A stretch of 58,712 bases of DNA, from positions 1 to 58,712 of the IMG/VR virus record IMGVR_UViG_3300014962_000008. One strand, written 5' to 3'. A program made the translations under genes and the position numbers. Below are positions 2,401 to 37,097 of the stretch, in pieces (within the stretch, counting starts at the first letter, position 1; each line of letters starts with the position of its first letter). The notes below the pieces were generated by a model, which saw only the letters and a program-made list of their open reading frames with translations, ran no database searches and was not told the DNA's origin. The DNA comes from a virus. Its lineage: Duplodnaviria > Caudoviricetes.

Positions 2401-3962
2401 TATTTGCTGTCCTTCATAAGCTGGACACCGCGCCAGATCGTGCCGCCATCGTCAGTAATAAAGCCGAGAACATCTACACCGCTTGTCGTTAGCGTTGGTG
2501 CCGTTCCACCGGGCCAATCAACTGATGCAGGCCACGTTTGCGTTCCTGTTCCGCCGTTGGTCAATTCCAGCAGGAAGCTATAGGCACGGGTCGCTGGAGC
2601 ATTGGTAAATGTCCAAGTCAGTGCGCCTGTAGCGGTCTTGGTGAAGTAGTTCCCAGCAGAACAATCAACAGCAGAGGCTGCAACCGCAGTGACATTGCCG
2701 CGCACAGAACCGAGAAGGTCTGCGGTTGCGGTTGTAACGGTTCCGGTAAAGGTCGGAGAGGCCGACAGGACGTTATTACCAGTTCCGGTAGAGGTGGTTA
2801 CACCCGTGCCGCCGTTCGCCACTGCCAAGGTGCCGGAAACATGGGTCGTAAGACCGATTTTACCCCAAGATGGAGCCGTTCCAGTACCACCGGAGATCAG
2901 AGCATTTCCGGTTGCTACACCAGCCAGCTTTGACAGCGCGCTGGTTGTAGAAGCGTAGAGGATGTCGCCGACTGTGTAAGATGACTGGCCCGTGCCGCCG
3001 TTTGCGGCGGGGAGCGTTCCGCTAACTTGAGTGGTCAGGCTCACGCCGGACAGCGTGCCGCCGAGTGTCAGCGAGCCGGACGAGGTGACGGTGCCAGTCA
3101 GGGTGATGCCGTTGACGCTGCCGGTGCCTGAGACACTAGTAACCGTGCCGCCGCCGGAACCAGCGCCGATAGCCGTGCGGAAGCTGGCTGCGTCCAGCGC
3201 GCTGACGGTGTTGTCTGCATTAATCTGCAAGAACGTGATGGCGCTGGGGTTGGTCAGCGTGAAGACGTTCGCGCCGACCGTGGTTGCGCCGAGGTTGGTG
3301 CGGGCCGCCGCTGCGCTTGTCGCGCCAGTGCCGCCGTTGGCCACGGCCACAGTGCCCGTGACGTTGGCCGCGTTGCCGGAGATATTGCCGCTAATGTCTG
3401 AGCCCGGAATTGTAGCGCTGGCCGTAAATGCTGAAGTACCGCTGCCCTTGACATATCCGGTCAGGGTAGTTGCGCCAGTGCCGCCATTGGCCACGGCCAC
3501 AGTGCCCGTGACGTTGGCCGCGTTGCCGGAGATATTGCCGCTAATGTCTGAGCCGGGGATGGTGGCGCTGGCCGTGAAGGCCGAGGTGCCGCTGCCCTTG
3601 ACGTAGCCCGTCAGCGTGGTTGCGCCCGTGCCGCCGTTGGCGACCGGCAGGGTGCCGGTGACCTGCGTGGTCAGGCTAACGCCAGACAGGGTGCCGCCGA
3701 GCGTCAGCGATCCGGACGACGTGACGGTGCCGGTGAGCGTAATGCCATTGACCGTGCCGGTGCCGCCAACGCTGGTGACGCTGCCGCTTGCGCCCGCGCT
3801 CGAGGCAAGGAGCTTGACGCTGCCGCCAGCGTTCTTGAAGTACAGCTTCTCATCAGTCAGGTTGATCGCCAGCTCGCCATCAGCGAGATTGACGGCAGAA
3901 GGCGTCGCAGCCGCCGTAGTGGTGCGATATAGCTGGATCGGCGTGTAGTTTGTAGCCGCCAT
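2400..3962 (-). CDS. Tail fibre protein with Gly/Thr-rich repeats
   Basis: N-terminal LADGELAIN motif, many VANGGTG repeats, C-terminal WPASVDWPGGTAPTLT..GVDVLGF domain. Confidence 0.85.
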   Translation of the reverse strand: MAATNYTPIQLYRTTTAAATPSAVNLADGELAINLTDEKLYFKNAGGSVKLLASSAGASGSVTSVGGTGTVNGITLTGTVTSSGSLTLGGTLSGVSLTTQVTGTLPVANGGTGATTLTGYVKGSGTSAFTASATIPGSDISGNISGNAANVTGTVAVANGGTGATTLTGYVKGSGTSAFTASATIPGSDISGNISGNAANVTGTVAVANGGTGATSAAAARTNLGATTVGANVFTLTNPSAITFLQINADNTVSALDAASFRTAIGAGSGGGTVTSVSGTGSVNGITLTGTVTSSGSLTLGGTLSGVSLTTQVSGTLPAANGGTGQSSYTVGDILYASTTSALSKLAGVATGNALISGGTGTAPSWGKIGLTTHVSGTLAVANGGTGVTTSTGTGNNVLSASPTFTGTVTTATADLLGSVRGNVTAVAASAVDCSAGNYFTKTATGALTWTFTNAPATRAYSFLLELTNGGTGTQTWPASVDWPGGTAPTLTTSGVDVLGFITDDGGTIWRGVQLMKDSK

Positions 3963-19650: not shown

Positions 19651-19717
19651 TTTCATCTCCCTTTCACTACAACACTGAAACGCAAACATACAACATATCC
19701 GGTCACAGCGTCAAGGA

Positions 19718-19912
19718 ACTGCACCGCGAAGCATCACGGTGCAAAAGTTTCAGAGCCTGCATCATCACCGCCAGCAGCTCCTGCACCACTTGCAGCATCA
19801 GGGTTACCCCTAAAGGGGTACCCCCTCTGTGCTGCAGCAGTTGGTGCATTTCGGGGAGCTGCACCATCTGCACCGTGATGCACCATGCTGTAAATGGTGC
19901 AAATGGTGCAGG
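19718..19912. repeat. Iteron-like TGCA[C/G/T]C array around a palindrome; putative replication origin or packaging site
   Basis: About 12 TGCACC/TGCAGC/TGCATC copies in both orientations; central tacccct-aa-aggggta and ggggtacccc palindromes at 19805-19824. Confidence 0.6.
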
Positions 19913-19968
19913 CCCAAAGCCAACGAAAATTCGCTGAGAAAACTTTTTTCACACCACATGCACTTTTT

Positions 19969-20044
19969 TGCAAATAGGGGGTTGCAACGCTGCACCACAT
20001 ATGAGAGAAGAGGTCATCAGAAACGCACTTACGGAGCAAATCAG
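19969..20044 (+). promoter_or_regulatory. Early promoter and conserved leader 1
   Basis: tgcaaatagggggTTGCAAcg (21 nt identical to 30689-30709); ATCAGAAACGCA at 20016; GGAG RBS. Confidence 0.7.
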
Positions 20045-20347: not shown

Positions 20348-20358
20348 CCCAACCTCTC

Positions 20359-20402
20359 GGGGGCTTCGGCCCCCACCCATCAGCAACGCAGGAGTACCCG
20401 AC
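20359..20402 (+). promoter_or_regulatory. UUCG hairpin followed by conserved leader 2
   Basis: gggggc-ttcg-gccccc with no U-tract, then ATCAGCAACGCAGGAGTAC (20379-20397). Confidence 0.7.
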
Positions 20403-21100: not shown

Positions 21101-21164
21101 GCTTGCAATGTAGCATTGCACGTGCCAGACAGGACAACCAATCAGCAACAAAGGAGACGCTGAC
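21101..21164 (+). promoter_or_regulatory. Promoter and conserved leader 3
   Basis: TTGCAA 21103, TTGCAC 21116, ATCAGCAACAAAGGAG 21141-21156. Confidence 0.65.
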
Positions 21165-25596: not shown

Positions 25597-25691
25597 TAGC
25601 AGCCATCATCTCCCTGACTGCGGTCGTTGTGGCCATCGTCGCGGGCGATTGGCTGGGGCGCGCAATCAGTGAATGGAAAAAGTTCAAATAG
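25593..25691 (+). CDS. Small membrane peptide (32 aa)
   Basis: MIAAIISLTAVVVAIVAGDWLGRAISEWKKFK; ATGA-coupled. Confidence 0.5.
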   Translation: MIAAIISLTAVVVAIVAGDWLGRAISEWKKFK

Positions 25692-25750
25692 GGTATTGCA
25701 ACGCTCCGTTGCATGGCTTATGGGTCAGTCATCAGCAACGGAGATACCCC
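25685..25750 (+). promoter_or_regulatory. Promoter and conserved leader 4
   Basis: caaatagggtaTTGCAAcg (TTGCAA 25696), TTGCAT 25709, TATGGG at 17-nt spacing, ATCAGCAACGGAG 25731-25743. Confidence 0.7.
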
Positions 25751-26038
25751 ATGAACAACCCTGAATATACCGCCCACGCCATCAACGAAGCCCTTTCCGG
25801 GCATGGCATCGGCGTAGTCTGGGACGGCAGCGAGGCGGAAGCCGATGGCGTTGAGCTGTTCTACGTCTGCGCAGACGGCGACGACACCGACCTGATCGTC
25901 TTGGATCACGGCTACTGCCTCGAGATCGTAGAGAATGTGGGCGACCGCTCCTACGTGTCGGTCGACGAGGCAATGAGCTTCGATAGTTTGGCCGCCAAGC
26001 TGGTGAACATCATTGACCGACTGGGAGAAGAGGTATGA
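25751..26038 (+). CDS. Acidic hypothetical protein
   Basis: ATG 25751 after GGAG. Confidence 0.75.
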   Translation: MNNPEYTAHAINEALSGHGIGVVWDGSEAEADGVELFYVCADGDDTDLIVLDHGYCLEIVENVGDRSYVSVDEAMSFDSLAAKLVNIIDRLGEEV

Positions 26039-30688: not shown

Positions 30689-30763
30689 TGCAAATAGGGG
30701 GTTGCAACGTCAGATTGAAGCTACTATATAGGGTTCATCGCAACGCATATAGGAGTTCATACA
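30689..30763 (+). promoter_or_regulatory. Promoter and conserved leader 5
   Basis: TTGCAA 30702, TATATA at 17-nt spacing, ATC-GCAACGCA at 30737, AGGAG RBS. Confidence 0.75.
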
Positions 30764-33563: not shown

Positions 33564-34148
33564 ATGGCTACTCGCATTATGCTCAAGAACGTCGTTCTGG
33601 CTTTCCCGGCTCTGGCCGAACCGCAAGCCTTCGGTGAAGGCGACCCGGCTTATGGCGCAAAGTTCCCCATTGAACCTAACAGCGAACAGCAGAAGGCCAT
33701 TGAAGCCGCAATGCTGGCCGAGGCCAAGGAGACGTGGAAGGACAAGGCAGACAGCGTTCTGAAGATGCTGGCCGAAGACAACAAGCTGGCCTTCACCAAG
33801 AAGGTCTATCGGTCAAAGAAGACTGGAGAGGCCTATCAGGGCTTCGAAGGCAAGCACTACCTGTCCGCGCGCAATGCCAAGACCCAGCCGACTGTGTTTA
33901 ACCAGTATGGCGAAGAACTGGCCAGCAAGGGCGACATTGAGCGTCAGGCGTTCAGCGGTGCCGTTGTCAACGCCTCGATCGAGATCTGGGCGCAGGACAA
34001 CAAGTGGGGCCGTCGCATCAACTGCTCGCTGCGCGGCGTCATGCTGACCGGCGAGGGTGAAAACTTCGGTGGGGGCTCTAGCCCAGCCAGCGCCGATGAA
34101 TTTGCCTCTCTGGCCAAGGCCAAGGCCGATGCGGAGGACATCCTGTGA
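33564..34148 (+). CDS. Single-stranded DNA-binding protein (DUF2815-type)
   Basis: [11 protein letters not shown]...[15 protein letters not shown]...GENF; acidic tail; between exonuclease and polymerase. Confidence 0.85.
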
Positions 34149-34399
34149 GCGACGCCGGGCACAACGTGACCGACGACCGCCTGCGTCTTCTGATCGAGCG
34201 CGTCGAGCGTTTGGAAGAAGAGAAGGCGGCTATCGCCGATGACATCAAGGATGTGTTCCTTGAGGCCAAGGCGGTAGGCTACGACGCCAAGATCATGAAG
34301 CAGGTGATCCGCCTGCGGAAGATGCAGCCCGACGACCGGCGTGAGATGGAAACCATCCTCGACCTGTACAAGTCGGCCCTTGGCATGGACCTACTTTAA
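34145..34399 (+). CDS. gapR: GapR-like nucleoid-associated protein (DUF2312)
   Basis: [56 protein letters not shown]. Confidence 0.9.
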
Positions 34400-34403
34400 C
34401 ACT

Positions 34404-34556
34404 ATAGGAGCGGTGTGACGGGATCATTGTCCCTCTGGCAATGTCGCTAAGCCCGTCACACCCTCTATTCTGGCGAGCCGCGCGAAGGTGCGGGTGTACT
34501 CCTGCGTTGCTGATACTCCTCCGCGCGGCTCACCAGAATAGAGGGACTTATCAGCA
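34404..34556. ncRNA. Structured RNA / polymerase 5' leader: two overlapping hairpins, with a loop complementary to early-gene leaders
   Basis: Stem 34412-34422/34452-34462 (11 bp); stem 34461-34488/34518-34545 (26 of 28 bp); 34496-34514 is the exact reverse complement of 20379-20397. Confidence 0.75.
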
Positions 34557-36553
34557 TGGCCACTCTCTGGCTCGATCTCGAAACGTACAGCACCATCCCG
34601 ATCAAGAACGGCGCACACAAGTACGCCGAGGGCGCCGAGGTGCTCCTCGTTGCGTGGGCATGGGACGACGAGCCCGTGGTCGTGTGGGACTGCACAGAAG
34701 GCGTGTGGGATACCTTCGCGCACGGCTTGCAGAAGGCGGTTGATCAGGCGGAGAGCGTGGTCATCCACAACAGCGCTTTTGACCGCACGGTGTTGCGTCA
34801 CTGCGGCGTAAATATACCTGTGGAAAAAGTTGATGACACCATGATCACCGCTCTGGCGCACAGTTTGCCGGGTTCTCTGGGCCAGCTCTGTGACGTTCTG
34901 GGCGTGCCGCAAGATAAGTCTAAGGACAAAGCCGGTAGACGGTATATACAGTTGTTCACGAAGCCGTGTCCGAGGAACTGGAAGATACGGCGAGCAACGA
35001 GGGAGACACACCCTGATGAGTGGAACGCCTTCATCGAATACGCCCGCCTCGATGTGGACGCAATGCGAAACATACATCGACGCCTGCCTCATTGGAACAA
35101 TACACACGGTGAGCGGCACCTTTGGCGACTCGACCAGAGAATTAATGACCGTGGTGTGTCCGTCGATCTGGACTTCGCCCAATGCGCAATCGGAGCTTTT
35201 TCACGAGCTACGCGATCTCTGGCCACTCGTGCAGCCGCTCTGACGGGCGGTATTGTCTCCTCAACAACGCAGCGGCAGAAGTTCATTGACTACCTGCGCG
35301 ACGTGCGCGGCTTCGAGGCCGATGACCTGACCAAGGGCACCGTGGAGGGCTTGCTCAAGGGCGAGCTTGACCCGAAGGTGCGCGAGCTGCTGGAGATCCG
35401 GCAGCAGGCCGCAGCGACCAGCCCGGCCAAGTACAAGGTGCTGATCGAGGCGACATCGCGCGACGGACGCCTGCGCGGCACGATCCAGTTCTGCGGTGCC
35501 GCGCGCACCGGGCGCGATGCGGGGCGGATATTCCAGCCGCAGAACCTGCCCCGCTCGCCTGACTGGTTCGACGGCGAGGTGCAGGAAACCACGATCGAGG
35601 CCATCAAGCACGACTGCGAAGACATCATTTATGAGAACGTCAGCGAACGCTGCGCCTTCGCGGTGCGCGGGACGCTGCTGGCCGCGCCCGGCAAGAAGCT
35701 TGTCATTGCCGACTTGTCGAACATCGAAGGCCGCGTGCTGGCGTGGCTGGCGGGTGAGGATTGGAAGATCGAAGCCTTCAAGGAATACGACAAGGGCGTT
35801 GGGCCTGACCTCTACAAGGTGACCGCCGGGCGCATCTTGAACAAAGATCCGTTCGAAGTTACCAAGACCGAGCGACAGAACCAAGGCAAGGTTCCCGAAC
35901 TAGCGGGGGGCTACGGGGGCGGGCTGGGTGCGTACCGCAAGATGGGTGGAGACACCTTCAACGCCATGGACGATGACACGATCGGGGGGATCGTGCAGGC
36001 ATGGCGCGCGGCGCACCCAGCCACAAAACGCCTGTGGTATGATGTCGAGGGCGCCGTTCGCTCCGCCGTCCGTGAGCCGGGTGAGAGCTTTGAAGTGCGC
36101 GCCCTGCTGCGCGTCGACACGGCCAAGGGCCCGGACAACGTGGACTACGTCCGCATCCGCCTGCCGAGCGGTCGCTACCTGTGCTACCGCAACATGCACA
36201 TCACCTCCGGCGACGATGAGTTCGGCGGCAAGGTGGCGGGGCAACTCGTCTACGAGGGCGTCAACCAGTTCACGCGCAAGTGGGAGCTGCTGGAGACCTA
36301 TTACGGCAAGCTGGTCGAGAACATCGTGCAGGCCATCGCCCGGGACGTGTTCATGTCCGGCATGCGCCGCGCCGAAGAGGCTGGCTATTGCGTCGTCCTG
36401 CGCGTGCATGACGAACTGGTCTGCGAAGTGCCAGACGATCCGTCATACACGCACGAGCAACTGGCCGAGATGATGGCCACGAACCCTAGCTGGTCACTTG
36501 GCCTGCCGCTGGCAGCGGCTGGCTTCGAAAGCTACCGATACAGAAAAGAATGA
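34556..36553 (+). CDS. Family A DNA polymerase (APSE-like) with 3'-5' exonuclease
   Basis: Exonuclease DLET and HNSAFD; RTGR; motif A ADLSNIEGR; motif B R..QGKVPELAGGYG; motif C VHDE. Confidence 0.95.
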   Translation: MATLWLDLETYSTIPIKNGAHKYAEGAEVLLVAWAWDDEPVVVWDCTEGVWDTFAHGLQKAVDQAESVVIHNSAFDRTVLRHCGVNIPVEKVDDTMITALAHSLPGSLGQLCDVLGVPQDKSKDKAGRRYIQLFTKPCPRNWKIRRATRETHPDEWNAFIEYARLDVDAMRNIHRRLPHWNNTHGERHLWRLDQRINDRGVSVDLDFAQCAIGAFSRATRSLATRAAALTGGIVSSTTQRQKFIDYLRDVRGFEADDLTKGTVEGLLKGELDPKVRELLEIRQQAAATSPAKYKVLIEATSRDGRLRGTIQFCGAARTGRDAGRIFQPQNLPRSPDWFDGEVQETTIEAIKHDCEDIIYENVSERCAFAVRGTLLAAPGKKLVIADLSNIEGRVLAWLAGEDWKIEAFKEYDKGVGPDLYKVTAGRILNKDPFEVTKTERQNQGKVPELAGGYGGGLGAYRKMGGDTFNAMDDDTIGGIVQAWRAAHPATKRLWYDVEGAVRSAVREPGESFEVRALLRVDTAKGPDNVDYVRIRLPSGRYLCYRNMHITSGDDEFGGKVAGQLVYEGVNQFTRKWELLETYYGKLVENIVQAIARDVFMSGMRRAEEAGYCVVLRVHDELVCEVPDDPSYTHEQLAEMMATNPSWSLGLPLAAAGFESYRYRKE

Positions 36554-36761: not shown

Positions 36762-37051
36762 CCCCGGCAGGCAAGCTGCAGGGGCACCTGCGCAAGCTGG
36801 TGCAGGGCAGCGGGGGTCAGTACCGCAAGATCCGCTACGAGGGGCGCAGGGGCTGCCCAGACTGCCTGATATGGTGGGACTGGCCTGCCCTCGCCTTTGT
36901 CGAGATCAAGGCGGAGGGTGACCGCTACAGCAAGCTGCAGGAGCGTGAGATTGAGCGCATGCGCGCGGCGAATATCCCCGTATTCACCGCAAGGACTGCG
37001 GAGGATGTGGAAAAAATCGTTGACCTAGTTAAAAAGGGGGTTGCAACCTGA
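36758..37051 (+). CDS. VRR-NUC domain nuclease
   Basis: GRRGCPDCLI...FVEIKA...SKLQ. Confidence 0.85.
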   Translation: MTPAGKLQGHLRKLVQGSGGQYRKIRYEGRRGCPDCLIWWDWPALAFVEIKAEGDRYSKLQEREIERMRAANIPVFTARTAEDVEKIVDLVKKGVAT

Positions 37052-37097
37052 CATTGCAAGTGCTATAAGGGCGCATCAGCAACGAAGGAGTAACCAA
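37031..37097 (+). promoter_or_regulatory. Promoter and conserved leader 6
   Basis: gggggTTGCAA 37041, TTGCAA 37054, TGcTATAAG at 17-nt spacing, ATCAGCAACGAAGGAGTA 37075-37092. Confidence 0.8.

Follow-up and report, generated by a model that had tools for sequence, protein, structure and literature searches.

A conserved structured leader RNA at the head of a phage replication operon and its complementarity to the leaders of early and middle genes

Introduction

Why should the loop of a long hairpin in the untranslated leader of a phage replication operon match, exactly and in reverse complement, a ribosome-binding region encoded some 14 kb away? The question is posed by IMG/VR virus record IMGVR_UViG_3300014962_000008, a tailed phage whose whole 58,712-bp record (CheckV completeness, 98%) is the stretch of DNA that we analyzed and that we call the window. 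The element at issue occupies positions 34412-34556, behind a gapR-like gene and directly at the gene for a family A DNA polymerase (pol). A first-pass annotation of the window had noticed the match and offered three models for it, an antisense RNA, a toehold switch and a minus-strand decoy, to be checked by looking for conservation and co-variation in related phages.

Comparative analysis indicates that the element heads the operon behind gapR as a structured 5' leader RNA, conserved and of plus-strand sense. The complementarity between its loop and the leaders of other genes is not a product of chance; it is conserved, offered in single-stranded form and co-varying. The reading that we favor, about which our confidence is evenly balanced, is a translational operator whose loop would be contested by a partner in cis and by leader-bearing mRNAs in trans.

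Results

Loop-leader matches within one genome

The 19 nucleotides at 34496-34514 (GTACTCCTGCGTTGCTGAT) are the exact reverse complement of 20379-20397, and a 19-mer pattern search of both strands of the window returned three sites: 20379-20397 (plus strand, 0 mismatches), 34496-34514 (minus strand, 0 mismatches) and 37075-37093 (plus strand, 2 mismatches). Over 100 dinucleotide shuffles the mean number of matches was 0.01, and three matches were reached in none of the 100. The window contains 11 copies of TCAGCAAC, the 8-mer core of the leaders, where 2.2 are expected, and 0/100 shuffles attain 11; five of these copies are four leaders and the loop copy, and the remainder lie within coding sequence. 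Six leader sites can be listed, all of them on the plus strand and directly 5' of start codons:

20379..20397, plus strand: leader copy before gene 20403, a perfect 19-nt match to the loop; without an upstream promoter, behind a GC hairpin at 20358-20376
37075..37092, plus strand: leader copy before gene 37098, matching at 17/18; 29 nt 3' of TTGCAA at 37041-46
21141..21156, plus strand: leader copy before gene 21165, matching at 14/16; TTGCAA at 21103-08
25731..25740, plus strand: leader copy before ATG 25751, matching at 10/10; TTGCAA at 25696-701
20016..20027, plus strand: variant leader ATCAGAAACGCA, matching at 11/12, of the first plus-strand gene (ATG 20045); TTGCAA at 19982-87
30737..30747, plus strand: variant leader ATCGCAACGCA, one base missing, before gene 30764

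The first-pass annotation had reported the exact 19-mer pair, a low chance estimate for it and the five weaker sites with these same match counts, all of which our searches reproduced. Its description of six intergenic leaders needs one proviso: every site does lie just 5' of a start codon, and the 25731 site is intergenic only if ATG 25751, which shares the frame of open reading frame (ORF) 25673-26038, is the start of its gene.

The predicted duplex between the loop and the 20379 leader has an energy of −43.3 kcal/mol, compared with −21.5 ± 3.4 kcal/mol for shuffled leaders. Those of the leaders at 37075, 21141, 25731 and 30737 follow at −36.5, −32.2, −31.8 and −29.1 kcal/mol, and the shuffled-leader means for the four strongest duplexes in the window range from −15.6 to −21.5 kcal/mol. 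At −27.2 kcal/mol, the duplex of the variant leader at 20016 falls inside the range of its shuffled controls (minimum, −34.7 kcal/mol). The helix that the same loop can form in cis, described below, is worth −14.1 kcal/mol in the window.

Fold and strand of the leader element

The minimum free energy (MFE) fold of the gapR-pol spacer consists of two hairpins, HP1 and HP2, and reaches −82.2 kcal/mol for 161 nt (z = −5.8), a stability equaled by 0/200 shuffles. Its parts, from 5' to 3', are as follows:

34380..34408, plus strand: candidate sigma-70-like promoter (TTGGCA at 34380-85, 17-nt spacer, TATAGG at 34403-08)
34412..34462, plus strand: HP1, an 11-bp GC-rich stem (34412-22/34452-62) carrying an inner helix, at or near the 5' end; from MFE folds
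34463..34543, plus strand: HP2 long stem (34463-34484/34522-34543), 21 Watson-Crick pairs and a C34474-A34532 mismatch; from MFE folds
34485..34521, plus strand: HP2 apical loop, 37 nt, holding a small inner helix; from MFE folds
34496..34514, plus strand: anti-leader in the loop, the reverse complement of 20379-20397, with its core GTTGCTGA at 34506-34513
34540..34545, plus strand: Shine-Dalgarno (SD) sequence AGAGGG of the first cistron, paired in or at the end of the HP2 3' arm; from the MFE fold
34549..34556, plus strand: cis partner TATCAGCA, ending at the A of ATG and pairing with 34508-34515 through 8 contiguous pairs; from loop complementarity

A hairpin with the polymerase SD in its 3' arm had been part of the first-pass annotation, and it is recovered here: 34461-34488 can be set against 34518-34545 over 28 positions with 2 C-A mismatches, and the MFE fold keeps 21 Watson-Crick pairs with AGAGGG in the arm. 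The SD region (34538-34545) has a mean probability of being unpaired of 0.10, while the corresponding value for GUUGCUGAU in the loop is 0.88 in the window ensemble and at least 0.5 in 55/56 distinct elements.

Relatives were gathered by polymerase searches, which gave 28 viral and 80 metagenome loci (numbered here with the prefix L); 102 of these contain the polymerase start, making 103 loci with the window. Among 31 distinct sequences, 24 of the 29 predicted stem pairs show compensatory changes, as do 11/11 predicted pairs of HP1; in helices 3 and 4 of HP2, both sides have changed in 13/18 pairs, and 97.6% and 97.8% of cells are paired. Paired cells amount to 91.2% overall versus 78.6% in column shuffles, of which 0/500 reach the observed value, and fall to 35-51% when the partners are slid by 1 to 3 columns. 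The within-stem co-variation that had been put forward as a check is therefore present. Six loop positions are invariant across 56 sequences: G34506, T34507, T34508, G34509, T34511 and G34512.

The pattern of wobble pairs speaks to the strand. Across the stems of the 31 distinct sequences, G-U or U-G cells number 47 and C-A or A-C cells 9. For HP2 in the 56 sequences, 31 G-U cells stand against 56 C-A cells, of which 44 belong to the mismatch column, 8 to a ragged terminal pair and 4 to positions elsewhere. These counts (47 versus 9 and 31 versus 4) agree with the earlier remark that G-U pairs favor the plus strand. The companion remark, that the mismatches favor the minus strand, fares poorly: among the 56 distinct elements, position 34474/34532 holds C-A in 44 cases and U-U in the other 12, and because of the U-U cases it is to be read as a conserved unpaired position and not as a disguised minus-strand G-U pair.

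A TTGGCA/TTGGCT box and a (C)TATAn box just past the gapR stop recur in relatives; the final gapR codons overlap the candidate −35 box and are themselves conserved, so that the conservation of this box is ambiguous. Transcription from such a promoter would start at about 34412-34416. Neither HP1 nor HP2 was picked out as terminator-like in a scan of the plus strand, and HP2 is followed by GGGACTTATCAGC, without a U run; inspection of 34412-34548 revealed no start codon with an SD. The 21 to 24 Watson-Crick pairs of HP2, with one conserved mismatch, are a necessary but not sufficient feature of RNase III substrates, and this long stem may serve as a recognition site for RNase III or for a protein. 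As in translational operators, the structure sits at the ribosome-binding site (RBS) of a replication gene, with the SD in the 3' arm of HP2 and the start codon in a pseudoknot.

A pseudoknot at the start codon

This pseudoknot, which the first-pass annotation had missed, joins UGCUGAUA in the loop (34508-15) to UAUCAGCA (34549-56). Counted independently of any alignment, 7 to 12 contiguous cis pairs ending at the start codon are present in 38/56 distinct elements. Their flanks co-vary (AUAAC/GUUAU, AUACAC/GUGUAU, AUAACUU/GGGUUAU and AUCC(UU)/(AA)GGAU), the cis helix of L108 contains a U-G wobble, and in L101 the cis partner is the full GGAUCAGCAAC. The cis helix that an element forms with its own start region averages 8.09 bp, versus 7.20 ± 0.12 bp when loops and start regions are permuted (p ~5e-4, relatedness ignored). 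Because the SD is held in HP2 and the spacer and start codon are held in the pseudoknot, the start region of the first cistron is predicted to be closed twice.

A diverged lineage (L122, L124, L129 and L133) has the same pseudoknot architecture in another sequence, with the loop GGUUGUCCCA and UGGGACAACC before the AUG; in these phages GGGACAACC doubles as the SD/spacer motif of other genes. Several genes of L129 (7040-7075, 7440-7460) and L124 (1840-1870, 2255-2275) share a GAGGGACAACC-(N1-3)-ATG start motif, and it is to this GAGGGACAACC-type start motif, not to a +1 tag, that their HP2 loop is complementary.

A separate observation concerns the first early gene of the window, where GGTCATCAGA at 20012-21 is 90% complementary to TCAGATGACC at 20041-50, which contains ATG 20045. 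The leader of this gene may fold back on its own start codon.

Joint change of loop and leaders

In phages whose loop reads GTTGCTGA, 79 of the 86 distinct promoter-leaders read TCAGCAAC. Where the loop has changed, the leaders have changed with it in several distinct lineages. The loop of L017 and L093 is GTTGTTGA, and the copies in leader context read TCAACAAC in 4/4 cases, a promoter-less copy included. L117 and L137 combine the loop GTTGTTGG with leaders that read CCAACAAC, without a cis partner. In L111 and L113, likewise without a cis partner, the loop is GTTTGCTTGA and the promoter-leaders read TCAAGCAA(G/T)C in 2/2 cases; a one-base insertion is common to loop and leaders, the ninth position of one leader pairs U-G, and the natural variant pair of loop and leader is TTGCTTGA/TCAAGCAA. 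Finally, the lineage of L020, L021 and L123 has the loop GCTGAGA (GCUGAGA), and 3/3 distinct leaders read UUCUCAGCAA(C/U), TTCTCAGCAA (TCTCAGC). Since no cis partner exists in L117/L137 and L111/L113, co-variation there is with RNAs or sites kilobases away. The loop-leader co-variation that the first-pass annotation had named as a check is thus seen in L017, L117/L137, L111/L113 and L020.

The likeness extends beyond the core. In every lineage the reverse complement of the loop resembles the whole leader, that is, TCAGCAAC, spacer, GGAG and ACC, and a loop, in its anti-SD part, resembles the leaders of its own phage more than those of other phages (mean local score, 14.9 versus 12.5; p ~1e-4, 21 loop types). 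Extra plus-strand copies of GTTGCTGA in relatives lie within coding sequence.

Leaders and their promoters

In the window and in relatives, TCAGCAAC stands 29 to 33 nt after the conserved box aAAtAGGGGgTTGCAAc (TTGCAA), with a −10-like CATAt/CTATAa between them; in the lineage of L028, L029 and L031 it follows TTGACA-N17-TTTATA-N7, at the same distance from the −10 box. We infer from this spacing that TCAGCAAC lies at about +1 of a host-type promoter class heading early and middle operons, and mRNAs from these promoters should begin (A)UCAGCAAC, followed by 1 to 8 nt, GGAG, ACC(C) and AUG. The promoter-leaders of the window are 19982/20016 (the variant), 21103/21142, 25696/25732 and 37041/37076, the last of which is 3' of pol; the late genes on the minus strand of the window are without such leaders.

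The promoter class has its own layout, consisting of an A-rich/GGGG box, TTGCAA, about 17 nt that often hold a second TTGCA/TTGA 7 nt later, a CATAt/CTATAa box, about 7 nt and TCAGCAAC. It is found at 19982-20044, 21103-21164, 25696-25750 and 37041-37097 of the window, as well as in genomes G001 (six copies), G002, G004 and G005.

Promoter-less copies of the leader occur at 20379 in the window and at 13430 in L017. In both places (window 20355-20402 and L017 13395-13450) the copy lies 4 to 10 nt behind a GC-rich hairpin without a U run (GGGGGCTTCGGCCCCC in the window). Such a hairpin with a promoter-less leader may be a processing or stabilizing site that recreates the standard 5' end within a polycistronic RNA.

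Distribution in related phages

A motif-plus-stem heuristic, applied within 1.3 kb upstream of pol, flagged the element in 75/103 loci, one of which (L133) was a false positive in coding sequence. A covariance model, R1, was built from 56 distinct sequences and run on 42 sources, comprising four whole or partial genomes, the heuristic-negative loci and the later loci L153-L156. It added L029, L111 and L113 (72-81 bits), L155 and L156 (82 and 75 bits) and the diverged copies of L122, L124, L129 and L133 (43-47 bits), and gave weak matches in L132 and Caulobacter phage RW (~20-22 bits). R1 found nothing in L009, L035, L120, L121, L125, L126, L128, L130, L131, L135, L139, L143, L144, L145-L152 or L154. 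Exactly one locus per genome, on the plus strand, was found in the window, G001, G002 and G003. The element is present in about 80/103 related phage contigs overall, and the first-pass annotation's check for conservation comes out in its favor.

The element always lies behind gapR, at the operon head, and the first ORF after it is pol or one of at least three unrelated small genes. Whichever ORF follows, (G)TATCAGC-ATG is kept directly at the start codon, and because it is kept before unrelated first ORFs, we assign the element to the head of the operon and not to pol in particular. The small genes add ~345 nt before pol in L008, L013, L015, L031 and others, ~670-720 nt in L017, L022, L030 and L081, and ~1020-1070 nt in L010, L074, L076 and L100; the inserted ORFs include one of ~97 amino acids ending ..ISEILHGKR (no Pfam match), one starting MIKAIETRYK and one starting MSHKTLTG.

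Outside these loci, a blastn search of the 141-nt element against 50,697 phage records gave no match, and the element pattern gave 0 matches, and no prophage copy, in 185,579 reference genomes. A polymerase profile search of genome contigs returned three short or phage-like contigs (L154, L155 and L156). We rejected these as evidence of hosts; they are binned in metagenome-assembled genomes labeled Bacteroidia, Pseudomonadota and Chloroflexota and look like binning artefacts.

Among cultured phages, the closest that shares this gene order is Caulobacter phage RW (L153, MK929790), in which exonuclease, SSB and an 84-aa GapR-like gene are followed by a 96-nt spacer (3441-3536) and pol. This spacer contains an HP1-like hairpin (R1, 19.8 bits; E, 0.003), without HP2 or an anti-leader, and TCAGCAAC is not enriched in the RW genome (91 matches within one mismatch, versus 71 for a control pattern). 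We found no cultured relative carrying the full element.

Genomic setting

The minus strand of the window carries structural and lysis genes at 1-19.3 kb and 41.5-58.7 kb. Between them, at ~20-41.5 kb, lies a plus-strand early and replication block that encodes a primase-helicase, an exonuclease, a gp2.5-like SSB, GapR, the family A DNA polymerase and a helicase. A scan of the whole window gave zero tRNAs. The element is bordered by two genes:

34145..34399, plus strand: gapR-like gene (Pfam PF10073 GapR_DNA-bd, 115.2 bits; phrog_4212)
34556..36553, plus strand: family A DNA polymerase gene, the first cistron behind the leader in this phage (phrog_17, E 2e-113; PF00476, PF01612)

TGCACC/GGTGCA repeats in both orientations are dense at 19715-19998, in the divergent stretch that separates the packaging genes from the first plus-strand promoter. 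The window holds 17 copies of CTGCACC, 6 of them inside 278 bp of this array, where there are also 13 inverted-repeat pairs. In its repeat content the array looks like an operator or an origin-like array.

Discussion

Comparative analysis establishes the fold of the element, the strand on which it is formed, its pairing in cis and the joint change of loop and leaders. Upon these we build a mechanism in which the transcription starts, the formation of duplexes in trans and the sign of the effect on either partner are inferred. By default, the translation-initiation region would be closed twice, by HP2, which takes up the SD, and by the loop pseudoknot, which takes up 8 nt to the A of the AUG; covering the spacer and this A, the pseudoknot probably represses translation. 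The loop (5'-..CUCCUGCGUUGCUGAUA..) would be the antisense of the standard leader (5'-AUCAGCAAC, 1-8 nt, GGAG..) on early and middle mRNAs, and leader-bearing mRNAs would pair with it in trans, competing with the cis partner. Translation of the polymerase operon would in this way be coupled to the pool of early and middle transcripts. A reciprocal effect is conceivable, in which the 5' end and SD of the leader-bearing mRNAs are covered. Leader binding could thus open the polymerase operon, silence the leader mRNAs, or do both; the sequence fits any of these. The first two models of the first-pass annotation, in which a plus-strand RNA pairs with leader mRNAs, survive as leading readings. The toehold analogy of the second holds only loosely, the complementary segment being confined to the loop and leaving the stem uninvaded.

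A number of observations count against an operator contested in trans. The promoter and start sites at the leader are putative, a strict consensus promoter scan having found none upstream of HP1 on either strand. Seven of the 86 promoter-leaders deviate from their own loop, L096 and L156 have a mismatch at position −1, and in most phages the TCAGCAAC-GGAG spacer differs between loop and leaders, which would make the pairing a two-part one. The loop-leader and cis permutation tests ignore relatedness among sequences. Genome G003 keeps the loop GTTGCTGAC, and there are no TTGCAA/TCAGCAAC leaders in its 49 kb, which are 77% complete; a leader candidate that we considered there (L033/L034), the sole 10-nt match, upstream of ATG 14491, is within chance (~1.8 expected) and was set aside. 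No RNA-recorded sequencing run contains the stretch, and the contigs of four presumed-RNA runs, compared with 33900-35100 at 85% likeness, yielded patchy pieces of relatives, uninformative on 5' ends and strand, three of the four runs probably being DNA. On physical grounds, a 19-bp duplex within a closed 37-nt loop is topologically strained, and one leader RNA set against several mRNA species raises a question of stoichiometry.

Of the alternatives, the one that survives best is an operator that acts in cis only, which we consider unlikely but worth serious attention. HP2 and the pseudoknot would keep the ribosome site shut until it is opened, for example by RNase III cleavage, by temperature, by helicase action or by the binding of a protein such as the polymerase, SSB or GapR. 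The match to the leaders would be a by-product, the start region of the operon being assembled from the standard parts that the leaders also use. No features of the element are better supported than the pseudoknot and the stem that contains the SD; RNase III or a protein could plausibly recognize the 21- to 24-bp stem, whose internal mismatch is conserved; and precedents exist in T4 gp43 and gp32, each a replication protein repressing its own mRNA via a leader structure (PMC3014915). A purely cis operator, however, does not explain why the 18/56 distinct elements without a cis helix of at least 7 bp nonetheless keep GUUG(C/U)UG(A/G), nor why the loops of L117/L137 and L111/L113 have changed with distant leaders despite the absence of a cis partner. 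The invariant G34506 and U34507 are unused by the cis helix, as is the CUCC part of the loop.

The co-variation of all copies that we observe is also what would be expected if TCAGCAAC were a DNA-level motif, the site of one phage or host DNA-binding protein, with the inverted copy in the leader acting as a roadblock or operator; loop and leaders would then change jointly through altered protein specificity. To that extent the co-variation tells against our own reading as well, and the fixed position of the motif relative to the −10 box in two promoter types and the Cro/helix-turn-helix-like proteins encoded by the phage (e.g., 26486-26722) fit the idea. It is nevertheless improbable in our estimation. 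The inverted copy is always antisense and is always found single-stranded, in the apical loop above a helix whose evolution follows plus-strand RNA (G-U far exceeding C-A); other antisense copies in the checked loci lie in coding sequence. Across the variable spacer the likeness runs on to the SD and ACC(C), features that operate at the level of RNA, and the loop pairs with an AUCAGC sequence in cis. Promoter-less copies (window 20379 and L017 13430) keep the motif and co-vary, and the partner of the loop in the L129 lineage is an SD/spacer motif, not a +1 motif.

A shade less probable again is a protein-bound loop, in which an RNA-binding protein would use the loop as its operator, as in autogenous control by the polymerase, and the leader complementarity would be without function. 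Protein operators typically show conserved loop nucleotides above a stable stem, and gp43 of T4 and RB69 recognizes a hairpin loop 5' of its own RBS (PMC3014915). This explanation leaves the joint change of loop and distant leaders in at least four lineages, including the shared insertion of L111/L113, unaccounted for, and a co-varying RNA helix involves the loop in 38/56 elements; strict autoregulation by the polymerase is further argued against because the first cistron is not the polymerase in many relatives. The minus-strand decoy, the third model of the first-pass annotation, in which a minus-strand RNA would display the sense motif to a repressor, is very improbable: the minus strand of the window does fold equally well (−82.4 kcal/mol, z −7.6) and both window mismatches are G-U on it, but the U-U mismatches at 34474/34532 (12/56) would be A-A there, plus-strand G-U (minus-strand C-A) exceeds the reverse in both counts given above, the pseudoknot partner and its U-G wobble are on the plus strand beside the start codon, and the minus-strand copy has no TTGCAA-type promoter and no ORF behind it.

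Returning to the operator contested in cis and in trans, we tentatively entertain a broader version, which is possible though doubtful. The untranslated region (UTR) of the polymerase operon would be a hub RNA whose exposed loop pairs with the shared 5' ends and SD regions of all early and middle mRNAs; by way of competition with its own pseudoknot, it would read the abundance of these mRNAs and time the translation of replication genes, in orthogonal loop/leader groups. The pairs GUUGCUGA/UCAGCAAC, GUUGUUGA/UCAACAAC, GUUGUUGG/CCAACAAC and UUGCUUGA/UCAAGCAA would be such specificity groups and, like plasmid incompatibility or P1/P7 immunity, would govern cross-talk between co-infecting relatives.

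If an operator of this kind is real, widespread uncultured aquatic phages wire early and middle expression through one RNA-RNA code, in which every early and middle mRNA starts with a common 8- to 9-nt tag, and the antisense loop that matches it tops, in the replication operon, a structure closing that operon's ribosome site. This would be a many-to-one RNA regulatory layout, none of which we found described for phages, and the natural compensatory variant pairs make the proposal directly testable. Even if the element acted in cis only, it would clearly add a new case of a phage replication operon under a pseudoknotted translational operator. In either case, the structured RNA family that emerges is new and well supported (56 distinct sequences with strong co-variation), and both it and the promoter/leader class are of use for annotation.

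Comparison with known systems

In the replication gene repZ of ColIb-P9 (IncI-alpha/IncB), a loop forms a pseudoknot beside the ribosome site or is captured by the antisense Inc RNA (PMC8053102). The likeness is that a loop in the leader of a replication gene pairs beside the RBS (8 bp here, and 7-12 bp in 38/56 elements) while a second complementary RNA competes. The competitor in ColIb-P9 is a dedicated antisense RNA from the opposite strand, whereas in the phage it would be the sense leaders of several operons 2.5-14 kb away; for a dedicated antisense RNA in the phage, we found no TTGCAA box upstream of the minus-strand copy and, in the consensus scan, no promoter on either strand. The plasmid system also involves a leader peptide, and its pseudoknot activates translation, whereas in the phage no leader peptide was seen and the pseudoknot is probably repressive. 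A sequence or Rfam relationship between the two was looked for and not found.

In phages P1 and P7, icd-ant (immI) is under the control of the antisense RNA c4. Its loops and their targets co-vary between these related phages, setting specificity; c4 is made in the same transcription unit as its target, and its loops pair with the ribosome-site region of that target. Whereas c4, a small RNA released by processing, acts on a single downstream target, the element of the window forms the 5' UTR of a replication operon, and the motif complementary to it heads many operons. C4 is characterized as an antisense RNA regulating ant (PMC8201110).

The T4 and RB69 operators differ from the present element in being short and bound by their own protein products, and the T4 polymerase is of family B, whereas that of the window is of family A. 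We know of no antisense partner for the gp43 and gp32 operators of these phages. The likeness is that of a leader structure governing ribosome access to a replication gene, namely, a hairpin for gp43 or a pseudoknot for gp32 (PMC3014915).

Synthetic toehold and loop-initiated riboregulators, together with 5' UTR elements that have an additional action in trans, share with the element an SD buried in a hairpin and a trigger complementary to the exposed part. In a toehold switch the trigger pairs with single-stranded RNA on the 5' side and goes on to displace the stem; here, the 19-nt complementarity (34496-34514) lies wholly inside the loop (34485-34521), short of both arms.

Rfam 15, whose set we take to include the C4 family, gave 0 matches over the whole window at gathering thresholds, and at E ≤ 1 the region 34350-34600 matched only mir-134, on the minus strand and at 18.1 bits against a threshold of 68. 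No description of the element was found in the literature, a statement that rests on a limited literature search and Rfam alone. Hairpins that sequester an SD, pseudoknots between loop and RBS, and antisense pairing are all known as kinds of part. The layout in which the element joins them is, as far as this limited search extends, new: one UTR loop is matched to the common 5' tag of early and middle mRNAs, and nature supplies the compensatory variants.

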